64,000 bases of DNA, taken from contig CM074519.1 in NCBI GenBank assembly GCA_037379345.1, forward strand, positions 124,001 through 188,000, in the 5' to 3' direction. The DNA is from Perna viridis (Eukaryota). The translations under genes were made by a program, and so were the position numbers. The notes under the pieces are model-generated. The model was not told where the DNA came from, made no database searches, and saw only the letters and a program-made list of their open reading frames with translations. This document shows positions 38,341 to 52,555 of the stretch, piece by piece (position 1 is the stretch's first letter; each line of letters opens with the position of its first letter).

Positions 38341-40076
38341 GTAATGCACTGGCGAAATTGTCACTTCTGTTTTGCTTGCCTCCCATCCTTAGCCCAACCG
38401 AATTTGGCAGTTAGCGTTTTGGTATATTATTTTATTTAATGAAGCATAACCAGTTTAGGTAGAAGGAAATTAATAAAGACGAGCAGTAATTTAGAATTTG
38501 CTTTCAGATCTGGTAAAACAGAAAACAATGTTCATAATCTACTTTAAGAAAATGCTAAAGCAAATTGTATTAGAAATTTAACACTTCATAAGGGAATCAA
38601 TCTAAACCTTAACTATATCAACATCAACAACAAAACAAAGCCTTTTACAAGTACCATATAACGGCGAGTTACACACCAAGAAACAAACATTTTCTTGCAT
38701 CTGTAGTATAAAGATTTTAGTGACAGTATAAACTAACGATAATGTCAATTATGAATGTAAGTGTACATTGAAGTGTTTTATAGTGTAGATAGAAGCTTGA
38801 TGAAACTAACATTGTTGCAACATCCAAGTATTGATTCATTTCTTTATTTTCACCTAAATATCTTAATTCAGCTAAATCTAAATCTAAATACTAAGAGCTT
38901 GTCAATATATGCAGACTTTGTATGGCGCTCGACATTTAAGTCGTTACTACAGACGTTGTGGTCGTCATTATGAACTCGTAGATTGTTACGGTGTATCCAC
39001 AGGTCCATGCTCTCAGGTAATAATGGAGTCCGAGTTGCTCATTTACTTTTTTATTTGTATGTACTATTTTGTTTATTTTATGTTCCTTGTTGTGTTTGTC
39101 TGTTTTCTATGTCAGGTCTTTGTCCCTTGAATACATTCTTTTGGTTTCCGCTAGAATCTTGGTTCTCTTGATTACTCTTATATTTGTAAGATCTGCTAAT
39201 CTAGTATCAGCTTAAGAAAAACGCATATTTTGTGAAAACTGCACTGATTTAAAAAAGTATTCTGATGTTGTTAAAAAGTTAAATTTTGAACAATAATTTT
39301 GTCGAACTTGGAGAATAGTTTTTTCAGCAGATCATTTGACTACCTAATGGAACCAATTTTGAACAACTCTTCGTTGATTTTTTTAAATTTTTGTATGAAA
39401 TCAGGTTTCGCTATTTTACTAGGGTTACTACAGAAAAAGGAGAAGTTAGTCCTAGTTTTTCAATTTCAGTTTCCGTCATATAGACAGATACATGTAATCA
39501 TATCTGAAAAAAAACATTATTATCAGGATTACTTATATTTTATTTTTCCAAACGAACGACATTAATCTTCTTCTGTTTCATACCGCATAAAGTTATGATA
39601 AACATAATGATTTTGAATTTCAAGCCTCAATAGTCACATTACAAGTGAGTAAAATCTGGTAAGTATTAAGTTCGGTTGGTTGTCAAATCGAGACGATATG
39701 AAATCTGACTGCAGATGTCTTTTCTCATTTGTTAGATAATTTTCATTTTGATCAAGCAAATTGTTATAACGACCAGAAAACTTCTGTAGTATTGATATCA
39801 ACAAAAGGTTCAACATACCACTACCAGCTTGTTAATTTGACCGTGTCCTGGTTCTATAAAAAGTCAGTATACATATTCCAGGCAATACAATAACGGATCA
39901 AATGTAGTATTGACTTGAAATGTTGATTTAATGCCACGAAGATAGGGAAAACCCAGAGGACAAAATCATCATGTTCGTCATAGCTAACATAAAGGTAGTT
40001 GAGTATGCAAAATATTGTTTTACTATCATGAAGCTTCATAAACAGGAATAATGTATTTATTTCATATTCTTCTTGT

Positions 40077-42424
40077 TTATGCGATACAGCAGTAACAGCT
40101 ACCACAATAAAGCAAACAAGGGCAGCCTATACAATAAAAAAAATGAAAGTTAGTAGCATTGCATATGAGACTTAAAACTAAGTAAAACGTCTGTTGATAT
40201 GCTAATTATAACAACCTTCAAACTAAAGAAACATGTGTCTCCTTATTTTGATAAATGGAATGTATTTGAAAGAACAGCTCCTAAAATCAAATACCTTTTT
40301 TAAACACAGTTTGAATTATAAAGAACGATTTGTAGAAAACGCATAATTACTTGTACTTGATAGATGGAATCGAAGTTTTTAAACTACTCCTTCGGTTTGC
40401 CGAAATGTTATATACTTACTACAAAAAGGTGTATTTATTGCTAATTCAATATAAAATGTATTATGGCATTTATGGAAATAACTTAAATACAGAGGCAATG
40501 GTGATTAGTAAAAATATGGCGATACTGAATTATTCGTTTTAAATAACAAAATTTTTGCATTTATATTGTTGAATAAAATCTCGAGAAGATGTTATGTCGC
40601 ACGAGCTTGCGAGCGAGCAATATCATGTTCTGTGAGGGGAAATATTAACCAATATAAATGCAATACACCTTTTACTGTATAGTACGAATATTCCAAACAT
40701 TACTATGCCTTTTTATTATCCTTTGGAGAGATGTATGGGCAATAAAACCAGGTAAAACACGTTTGTCTCTACTCTGTCACTTTTATACTTCCAGTAGTTA
40801 CAATATTTACGATGAAAGATTTATTATAATTGTTAATTTCTGTACACTGAGAAAGGCTACTTTAACAGTGATAGGTTTCGGGAAGGTGATGGCAATAGTT
40901 CCAGGAAACCCCCTGAATCCGGAATTGATTCTTTTACAAATTTATTCAATATTGAACATATCTACTAGTACTTCACATTTCAACTAGTTTAATATATGTA
41001 ACACTACCATTTTTTCTCTCATTCGTCCATTAACTCTAAAATTAATGTCAGTTAAAATTAATCTCAACAAATGAAATGCATTTTATCATGATCGGCATCC
41101 GAAATTTTTCGTTGACATTTGATAACAATGCTATATTATCTGAGGAAATTTCGGATCGGAACGCACATGTACAAGGACTTGTTATTCGAGGGCTAATATT
41201 GGACAAGTGATACAGTAAACAATGGGAGAGTATAACGGCACACTCGGTTTTTTATCAAGTACTTTTTTTATATCGTGAAGATTTGTACAATTTTATTTGG
41301 CTGTATTTTCTGTACAAAACTGAAAATCTTGGTATGCTCTGTATTTGTATACATACAATAAACAGATATACACGTCCAAATGACCGCTTGATTGTCTGAT
41401 TGTACAAACTCTCCGAGAAATCCAGCAACGAAATGATAGAGAATTCCAAGAAAGGATGTGAGTAAAGTTAGCAATGTGATAAAGGATGTGATATCAAAAT
41501 GTTTGATACAAGTCAAATATTTTTTAGTCTTTATTAGACATTCAATACTTCTTTATTACACTACTGACTATATGATAAAATAATATATATTGCACGGTTA
41601 TTACTTCAGATTTGTTTTTTGAAATTAAAAAGCAAATTATTGTAATTCAATATATTGGTCAATTTTAAACCTGCACATTTACCAATTGTAAGTTAAGAGC
41701 AAATATGGAAAGACAATGTTACAAATAAATGGTTATGTTGATGATTGTACTAACCTATAGTAGGAATATCTTGAGTTTTAGCTGGTGAATAGCAAATGAC
41801 CAGAATGATACTGAAATAAAGACTCATCGTCATAACCAAAACCATTAAATTCCTCAGCAATTCGATAACCTATAAAATGAGTAATTTAGAAGACTTTGGT
41901 GATATATATATTCAAGTTATTTCATGTAATAATTATGGTTTTCAAACTCGTTTGTATAATTTGTTTTACTTATAAAAGATTTTTTTTAAAGAATAATATT
42001 ATATGATTTCCTGAATTAAATTTTAAAAGTTTTCGCTTTGGATTATCTGTATTGAGTCTTATGGATTTTTTTAGATTGAAAGCAAAATATTGAATTTCCT
42101 TTTGACACAAGGACACATAAACTTGAATAAAGACCCTCTGCGAACAGATGTGAAAGAAAGGAATTCATTAAAAAGCAGTTTTTTTGTATTCATTTGTTAG
42201 CGAAAAAAATGCTTTAAGTACTGAAACTTGAAATTTTTTACACTCCAAAATGTTTAAATCTTTTTTAACCCGTACATGAAAAAAAAATACACTCCGGATG
42301 ATTTTTTTTCTTTATTTTAAAGTACACAAGTAGAAGTGTCAAGATTACTAACAATTTCGATAGAAATGTATTAAAGTTACTAGAGTGCCAGCTCTTTTAC
42401 TTATATAATCTGTTTACTTACCAT
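40077..42424 (-). CDS. Small secreted cysteine-rich peptide gene 2, 55 aa: join(42422-42424, 41755-41869, 40077-40126) = MVIELLRNLMVLVMTMSLYFSIILVICYSPAKTQDIPTIGCPCLLYCGSCYCCIA*
   Basis: accATG|gtaagt; ttttatag|115-nt hydrophobic exon|gttagta; ttttttttattgtatag|Cys exon with TAA; AATAAA at 40056-40061; same architecture as gene 1. Confidence 0.82.
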
Positions 42425-50557: not shown

Positions 50558-52555
50558 TCATGCAATACAGCAAAAACAGCCTCTGACACAATAAATACAA
50601 CAGTCTGTATCTAAAAAGAACATAGAACCATCAGAATATTTCAAGTAAAGCTTTACACAGGGAGATGGCTAATGTCAAATAATTACTAGTCATTAAATAG
50701 CGGAAAAACAGCTGTAAAAACCAATATCTCAATTGAAAACACGCTATAATTACCAACGATTGATTAAAAGCAGGGGCGACGATATCTTTTAAAAAGAACA
50801 AAAAGTATAATATCAAATCGTATCGGATTCACAAGATTCTCATTGTTTTGCATAAGTTAAGTCGGTGGCGTATTCAGAAAATTCAAACTACAAAAGAACA
50901 GTCAGTTATTATGCCGAATATTTCAAAACCACATACAAAATATAAGACCGTTTTACCATTCAATTAATCATGAAAAAGTTGCGATAAAACTATGCTTTCA
51001 ATTCGACCAGTTAACGTACTATCAGTTACGTGTTAACCATTTTGTCAGCGAAGGATTAGTTATAGATATTCTTAACGGTAAAAGTACCAATTATACTAAC
51101 CTGGAATAAAAAATGGAAGTATCTGTGCTCTAATTACTGAAGAAGGGAGAATAAGAATTATGCACACAGTAAGGACTACTGCCAAAATCCAAACCATTGA
51201 TTTGTTTAGTAGACCCTGTAAATGGTTTCAAATCATAAACTGAAAACAGTACACTTTGTTTAGATGTTACACAAATGCGTCATAAATCATGATTCTAACC
51301 AATTAAAAATTTGACATAAGATAGAAAGATAGAATATTGTATTTTCAAATATTGAAAAAAAATATGTGTAATATCTGAAAATAGGGAGGGCGAAAAGCTG
51401 CCTTGGTTTTCATGAAAAAAGTACAAGTATCTGTAAGAATCAGGCAGCGGGTGAAACATGATATGAAAAAAACCACCATTTTGATAGTTTAATTTGACTT
51501 TTTTCACCCCCAGAATCAAGGAAAACAGACAAGATTTTCCATATCATGCTGGCCCATTGAGTTACAATTTCATTGAAATACACTGAAAATGAACATTTCA
51601 AGGGCAGATAACTGTAAAAAAAAAACTTATTTTTCTATCATTCTATTAAAAAAAATTTTGAGCACAGCCAGTGATGCAGAGATTAAATAATGGTCTTTTC
51701 AAGTAGAGAAGGTATCCTTGAGTGATATTACATTGTCCGATCGGTGGGTTTATGGCATGAAAGTTTCTGATTTTTCCCATTTTGCCTGATTCTTACAAAC
51801 ACTTACACTTAATTATTGTAATTTTTCTGAACTTGTCAAAAAAGTAGCAAAAATGTTGTTCATGTTCTTTAACATTTTTCGTTCATGTCCTATACTTGAA
51901 ATCCGATATCTACCTGTAGTTCATGACCAAATTGTTCTGATCTTTTCACTAAGTAGCCCTTGGATTTTGAAAAAAAAACACGAAATCCCGGAGACCCAAA
52001 CATTTGGGAATAAAAATCTCTTATTAAATGTCATATGTACACATGTACATAATAGCTCCTTTAACACTGTCGGAGTCTTTGTACGCAAAACTGTTTAATA
52101 TTTTATTTTTCATTGGTAAACATTTTTCAAAAATTAAGGCAACGGTATTTTTTTTTCATTGTTACTGAACTAAAATATGAATCAATATTAATCTAATTGT
52201 CGGGTGGGAGTTTCTTATACCCACGCTGTGATTCCCCACTTATATAGCGGGAGATGTACAGTGATCATTTGTATTTTAGTGTATCATTATTCATTTTTTT
52301 TTTATGATATAAACACGGATTCGTAATGGTCTACTTAGTAAGTTATTCACATCAAATAATTATGGGCAATAATTGTATCAACTATTCTTTACAGAAACAG
52401 GAGGGATTTTTTTAAGTTTACGTGATGGTTTAGGCACTTTTCCCGCTCTCCTAAACAGCATTTTCACTTTAACGCTTGATTTTACTAAAACTGATGTGTC
52501 CGGACTAGAAATCATTACAGGGAAAGTTATTTGATAAACCAATAAAACTCACCAT
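50558..52555 (-). CDS. Small secreted cysteine-rich peptide gene 1, 56 aa: join(52553-52555, 51101-51215, 50558-50610) = MGLLNKSMVWILAVVLTVCIILILPSSVIRAQILPFFIPDTDCCIYCVRGCFCCIA*
   Basis: gccATG|gtgagt; catttacag|115-nt hydrophobic exon|gttagta; ttctttttag|Cys exon with TGA; AATAAA at 50525-50530. Confidence 0.84.

Follow-up and report, generated by a model that had tools for sequence, protein, structure and literature searches.

A 64,000-nucleotide stretch of the Perna viridis genome (assembly GCA_037379345.1; hereafter the window, whose coordinates are used throughout), which spans 124–188 kb of the 45-Mb contig CM074519.1 in an animal genome of 723 Mb, contains two minus-strand genes, here named A and B, for very small cysteine-rich precursors. 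Both are real, spliced, and expressed genes. Their products apparently represent an orphan, undescribed kind of tiny six-cysteine peptide that is predicted to be secreted. The two genes had originally been predicted from the sequence as a hidden family missed by the open reading frame (ORF) track.

Gene A comprises an ATG micro-exon (52553–52584, with the ATG at 52555–52553 and a phase-0 donor), a 115-nt signal-peptide exon (51101–51215), which also encodes the first eight residues of the predicted mature peptide, and a last exon (50497–50610) with the cysteine core CC-X2-C-X3-C-X-CC, a stop codon at 50560–50558, and an AATAAA signal at 50530. The corresponding exons of gene B are located at 42422–42451 (ATG at 42424–42422, phase-0 donor; placed from the sequence, with no coverage in four runs), 41755–41869, and 39900–40126, the last of which has the core C-X-C-X3-C-X2-C-X-CC and a stop codon at 40079–40077. 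The coding introns of both genes are in phase 0 and then phase 1. All four junction coordinates of the original prediction are correct in sequence, and the shared layout that it described is present in both genes, namely an ATG exon, a 115-nt exon with an AG/GTTAGTA phase-1 donor, cysteine exons with coding parts of 53 and 50 nt, and the ATGAAATAAA motif after each stop codon. The spliced precursors are open over 56 (A) and 55 (B) residues. Although both 115-nt exons are real, their equal length is partly a coincidence, because the best alignment of the exon-2 peptides requires a two-codon shift (11 identities versus 4 in register).

The 5′ edge of each ATG exon is set by a pyrimidine/AG acceptor upstream of the donor (32 nt in A and 30 nt in B). 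Given these acceptors and the 16 unplaced letters at the 5′ end of the X1 contig of A, the ATG exons are probably internal micro-exons behind a further, unseen 5′-untranslated region (UTR) exon. Candidate donors for such an exon (CAG/GT, minus strand) are found at 44386 for B and at 54298 and 54799 for A, and dinucleotide microsatellites lie directly upstream of both genes (44465–44527 for B and 52704–52773 for A). At the 3′ side, the X1 contig of A that spans 50497–50610 ends about 30 nt past the stop-adjacent AATAAA, consistent with the use of that signal. The 3′ UTR of B extends below 39900; its contig runs for about 550 nt beyond the stop codon and, if colinear, reaches near a distal signal at 39544.

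Three of the four predicted junctions are found in public RNA contigs, and the first junction of B is unsupported. In three of four runs (X1, X4, and X6), which belong to three studies, introns 50611–51100 and 51216–52552 of A have been spliced out with GT-AG boundaries; the RNA nature of these runs is a guess that is not on record, and the runs carry no tissue label. The contig depth of A is 14.8 in X1, 2.7 in X4, and 260 in X6, values that do not rank A against B because the runs were selected with gene A, and the non-repeat intron bins have a depth of zero. Exon 2 of A is single-copy in the genome, and a retrocopy in this assembly therefore does not account for the joints. Its sequence has no differences from the genome in all three contigs of the different studies. 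For B, removal of intron 40127–41754 was seen in one of four runs, in a single X1 contig that joins the last 25 nt of the 115-nt exon, its short side, to position 40126. This contig differs from the genome at two positions, both in the UTR. Nothing of B was seen in X4, X6, or X11 (the last being no test), and its first junction lacks RNA support in the four runs examined. In the raw-read run X10 (10.4 million reads), no read fell on the exons of A. Expression of A looks restricted, since it was found in three of four runs and had no read on its exons in X10. Twelve other runs guessed to be RNA, with a share of 0.00, and three with a small one (X2, X3, and X5) carry no weight in this comparison.

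The sequence comparison identifies A and B as paralogues of common ancestry. None of 5,000 shuffles, in which the signal and the mature part were randomized separately, reached their local alignment score of 77. The precursors share 19 of 53 residues, with 9 of 31 (29%) identical in the signal and 10 of 22 (45%) in the mature part, and the introns have no alignable similarity. In addition, a broken partial duplicate of B, here named copy C, is located at 45164–45611 on the minus strand. At 92% identity to B, it spans most of exon 2 and some 340 nt of the following intron, has an in-frame stop just before an internal ATG and a dispersed repeat at its end, and lacks a cysteine exon of its own. 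No joint or loose end indicating that its exon is spliced to the cysteine exon of B was found in four runs. A depth of 2.35 was recorded in the bin that holds copy C (45356–45627) in run X1 alone. Faster change in its exon than in its intron was considered and rejected (7/105 versus 11/328, P = 0.16).

The term family overstates the size of the group, which consists only of A, B, and the broken copy of exon 2 of B. The pattern C-[FY]-CC-IA-stop has two matches in the genome, both in the A/B locus; however, a control pattern also has two, and the pattern was drawn from A and B themselves and is therefore not independent proof. A loose cysteine pattern gave 101 matches genome-wide versus 142 for its control, and none of the 48 distinct sites translated (50 rows) has the layout. 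The donor pattern gave 45 matches versus 35 for its control, and among all 24 in-frame cases a signal-like stretch was present only in A, B, and C. An additional genome-wide pattern was poorly formed and stayed at the chance level. Very distant members could escape these genome-wide searches. An unrelated repeated gene family was also noticed, with five almost identical exon ends at C1:16.13 Mb and C4:8.49–8.74 Mb (four clustered on C4) that share this donor and have an open frame.

The predicted mature peptides have 25 (A) and 22 (B) residues. As originally described, they are hydrophobic and acidic, with isoelectric points of 4.2 (A) and 4.1 (B), grand average of hydropathy values of 1.2 (A) and 1.0 (B), and at most one basic residue. 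The six cysteines lie within a core of 13–14 residues, with spacings of 0,2,3,1,0 in A and 1,3,2,1,0 in B, and the stop follows two residues after the last cysteine. Five of the cysteines occupy aligned positions in A and B; the sixth has moved, with the count unchanged. The signal stretch of both genes has a hydropathy of 2.5–3.4 over 11 residues. Predicted cleavage before Gln agrees with the −3/−1 rule in both genes, a simple rule used here in place of SignalP: among 12 positions, the Gln site is the sole compliant one in A and one of two in B. This N-terminal Gln of the predicted mature part is common to A, B, and C. Counted from the first ATG, the signal would be 31–33 residues long, but A, B, and copy C all have an internal Met, 24 residues ahead of the Gln, that would give a signal of normal length if used. 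Neither precursor contains a dibasic site, an amidation glycine, a propeptide, or an extension at the C terminus. With three disulfides and a pyroglutamate, the computed average mass is about 2821 Da for A and about 2317 Da for B. The cysteine cores contain CC, CXC, and CXXC motifs, and the peptides have four (A) and two (B) aromatic residues.

The original prediction did not recognize the family, and our searches of protein sets, Pfam, PDB, and the literature likewise yielded no homologue. Each query was a frame from a single exon rather than the spliced precursor, in some cases with in-frame residues of an intron, and sensitivity to distant relatives is therefore low. In a set of 5.8 billion proteins, neither the exon-2 frame of A, the only exon-2 frame compared at near lengths, nor either cysteine-exon frame at 19–74 residues gave a candidate; A and B themselves would be findable at 19–74 residues, whereas distant relatives perhaps would not. 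Alignment of exon 2 against proteins of 75–2000 residues gave 342 candidates, none at E ≤ 10, and a HMMER search of 1.84 billion representatives with the two cysteine-exon frames gave no match at E ≤ 0.001. None of four frames exceeded the Pfam cut-off, only chance matches were found in PDB (E 2.3–2.8), and the best ESM Atlas match (0.88) was under its own threshold and not usable. The literature covered, which excludes subscription journals, has no description of these peptides, and four short motifs occur in none of the papers. The papers on mfp-16 to -19, myticofensins, and myticusins may bear on the novelty of A and B.

The CRP-I peptides of Mytilus are, like A and B, short six-cysteine orphan peptides of mussels; they are secreted, have 25–38 residues, and follow the array C(X3-6)C(X1-7)CC(X3-4)C(X3-5)C (PMC4558851, PMC10138031). 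Their precursors have a conserved signal, a hypervariable mature region, a dibasic-ended pro-region, and phase-1 then phase-2 introns (PMC4558851), and they usually have a positive charge and many gene copies (PMC4558851, PMC10138031). In contrast, the arrays of A (CC-C-C-CC) and B (C-C-C-C-CC) differ from C-C-CC-C-C, no KR or RR lies between the signal and the cysteine core, and the introns are in phase 0 then 1. Moreover, with only two genes to compare, identity is lower in the signal (9/31) than in the mature part (10/22), and A and B are acidic and present as two genes. Mytilins, myticins, mytimycins, and defensins are also cysteine-rich mussel peptides, as are the predicted secreted products of A and B. 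However, mytilins have eight cysteines in a mature peptide of 33–37 residues (PMC7168163), and mytilins and mytimycins have at least eight in at least 33 residues (PMC7168163, PMC8004829, PMC11767717), whereas A and B have six in 22–25, which fits neither the mytilins nor the cysteine-stabilized alpha-beta (CS-alpha-beta) peptides. Similarly, mytilin, myticin, and mytimycin precursors have an anionic C-terminal extension (PMC7168163, PMC8004829, PMC11767717), whereas A and B stop two residues past the last cysteine. Certain mytilins of Perna have an almost neutral charge (PMC7168163, PMC8004829, PMC11767717). Myticalins are without cysteines (PMC12294457), and myticofensins are described as CS-alpha-beta peptides (PMC10138031). 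Among the byssus proteins, mfp-6 and mfp-16 to -19 (the latter compared by description only) resemble A and B in being cysteine-rich and lineage-restricted, and secreted proteins of this kind build the byssus cuticle matrix (PMC7018715); Pvfp-6 is 121 residues long (PMC6508894). The CC, CXC, and CXXC motifs are typical of metal binders (PMC6508894), and A and B share them with metallothioneins.

Other comparisons lead outside the mussel secretome. Metallothioneins are cytosolic and have no signal peptide and no aromatic residues, whereas A and B have a predicted signal and four and two aromatics, respectively. Vertebrate hepcidin has about 25 residues, a hydrophobic N-terminal arm, and a dense cysteine core that ends in CC plus two residues; size, arm, and this ending are common to A and B. 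However, hepcidin has eight cysteines, is cationic, and is released from a furin-cut propeptide, whereas A and B have six cysteines, no polybasic site, and no Pfam match. Conotoxins have a pre-pro layout. A alone has the pattern of framework III of the M-superfamily conotoxins (CC-C-C-CC; M1 type, with a one-residue loop 3), and B has that of framework XXV, as in conotoxin as25a (PMC4278219). Three-disulfide M1-type peptides of 15–16 residues are known to fold, and both scaffolds serve channel and receptor binding (PMC4278219). Conotoxins are also similar to A and B in size, and pyroglutamate occurs in them. However, A and B lack a propeptide and a hypervariable family, and their host is not a venomous snail. 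No conotoxin sequence similarity was detected in the Pfam and PDB searches with single-exon frames, and the exon-2 frames had no Pfam or protein-database match that would indicate an M-superfamily signal. By this comparison, A and B would not be members of the conotoxins, the resemblance is likely due to convergence, and the peptides may nevertheless work in a like manner.

We tentatively favor a role of A and B as non-lytic defense peptides that bind a specific protein target instead of bursting membranes. Signal peptidase would cleave immediately N-terminal to the aligned Gln, without a propeptide step, and glutaminyl cyclase would cap this residue as pyroglutamate. The six cysteines within 13–14 residues would oxidize to a compact three-disulfide core, giving a peptide of about 2.3–2.8 kDa, and the hydrophobic, Pro-containing N-terminal arm would form with this core a surface that binds, at an epithelium, a channel, receptor, or enzyme belonging to a microbe, a parasite, or a grazer. 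We infer secretion, the Gln cleavage, the pyroglutamate, and the three disulfides: the hydropathy and the −3/−1 sites in both genes support a secreted peptide, and a six-cysteine count kept despite one moved cysteine is expected if all must pair. The usual cationic membrane lysis is unlikely because A and B have no positive charge, whereas a hydrophobic arm attached to a compact core is well suited to protein binding. A defense role was chosen because most orphan secreted cysteine-rich peptides of mussels are linked to immunity (PMC10138031, PMC12294457) and because channel-binding venom peptides use these frameworks; the restricted-looking expression of A was also counted for it. Several observations weigh against defense. 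Only two intact genes were identified: neither the 264 kb surrounding the locus nor the genome-wide protein and pattern searches revealed further members. The original prediction had pointed to a fixed gene structure with variable mature peptides, as in toxin-like families, but this argument is weak, because identity is higher in the mature part (45%) than in the signal (29%), there are only two intact genes, and exon 2 of A is identical in three studies. The few A and B contigs, in which rare variants are lost, revealed no polymorphism in the coding sequence; both this and the lower conservation of the signal differ from known mussel immune families. Furthermore, CRP-I, the one comparable orphan family, had no antimicrobial, insecticidal, or cytotoxic effect in the tests described in PMC4558851, and a match in six-cysteine pattern arises easily by convergence.

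The low copy number and the conservation pattern keep two alternatives in play. A and B may instead be endogenous signaling ligands (a hormone, a pheromone, or a hepcidin-like regulator of a transporter), pyroglutamate-capped and disulfide-locked, whose hydrophobic arm binds a host receptor. This possibility, which we regard as doubtful, would agree with the single locus, with a mature part more conserved than the signal, with coding variation that was not seen across studies, and with the N-terminal Gln of A, B, and C; an arm joined to a cysteine core, as in hepcidin, would also be in line with it. However, the precursors have no dibasic sites or amidation glycine and no Pfam hormone match, only 19 of 53 residues are identical between A and B, and no homologue was found outside this genome with the single-exon queries, whereas hormones are usually traceable. 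Alternatively, and with somewhat lower probability, the peptides may be thiol- or metal-active matrix components of the byssus cuticle, periostracum, or mucus, serving as a redox buffer, cross-linker, or chelator like mfp-6 and mfp-16 to -19. The metal-binder motifs (PMC6508894), the cysteine-rich secreted proteins of the byssus cuticle matrix (PMC7018715), and the combination of hydrophobicity with restricted expression, which fits a gland product, speak for such a role. On the other hand, an even and conserved cysteine count in the secretory path favors disulfides, and no metal-response element occurs in the 2 kb upstream of the ATG of A (one occurs upstream of B). The terminal motifs are also absent from 11 supplementary texts of the green-mussel byssus proteome (PMC6508894), a weak argument because two files could not be read and very small ORFs are generally left out. 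It is quite improbable that A and B are uncleaved membrane micropeptides with a cysteine-rich tail: their signals would be long when counted from the first ATG (31–33 residues), but the −3/−1 sites align before a conserved Gln and the conserved internal Met would give a normal 24-residue signal. Least plausible is that the genes are non-coding in practice, as spliced non-coding RNAs or decaying genes. Copy C is broken, and the first junction of B is unsupported; however, the diverged A and B keep their frame, intron phases, signal hydrophobicity, and cysteine core, while their introns are unalignable.

A and B add an unannotated, expressed peptide type, predicted to be secreted, to the mussel secretome, and they are among its smallest three-disulfide candidates and easily synthesized. 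As orphan cysteine-rich peptides are common in mussels, the surprise is moderate without a function. A more far-reaching idea, which we rate as rather unlikely, is that a minimal three-disulfide ligand, capped by pyroglutamate and made without a propeptide, arose independently in a bivalve on conotoxin-like frameworks and would act on ion channels, receptors, or a transporter (as neuroactive defense or a hepcidin-like hormone), and that its paralogues switched framework by the move of one cysteine. If they do bind channels or receptors, the peptides would represent a natural scaffold not seen before, and a filter feeder would have converged on the frameworks of cone snails. The pair is also a natural experiment on the effect of one moved cysteine on a framework. 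Finally, the locus illustrates an annotation gap in which genes with a longest coding exon of 115 nt are overlooked.

The two genes are flanked by VPS29 upstream and a Myb/telomere-factor-like domain downstream, with transposon remnants around them. The VPS29 gene (58800–62300, minus strand; exons near 60677–60459 and 59660–59424, among others) lies about 6 kb upstream of gene A and was identified by a PDB match with E 3e-37; it can serve as a synteny anchor when orthologues are sought. Degenerate transposon remnants were observed at 46300–47300, 47900–49550, 55560–56050, and 28700–29900, and comprise integrase-like frames (Pfam rve, below the cut-off), a MULE transposase (above the cut-off), and frames recognized by eye as similar to those of long interspersed nuclear elements. 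The Myb domain at 9568–9849 (minus strand) has SNAPC4 and TRF1/TRF2 as top PDB matches (E 3e-6 to 2e-4), and the gene that contains it, near the start of the contig, is possibly a telomere-binding factor gene; an unassigned ORF at 25364–25756 was noted alongside it. A 51-nt tandem array at 4590–5600, with open frames of >200 codons on both strands and no Pfam match, may represent either a repetitive exon or a minisatellite.

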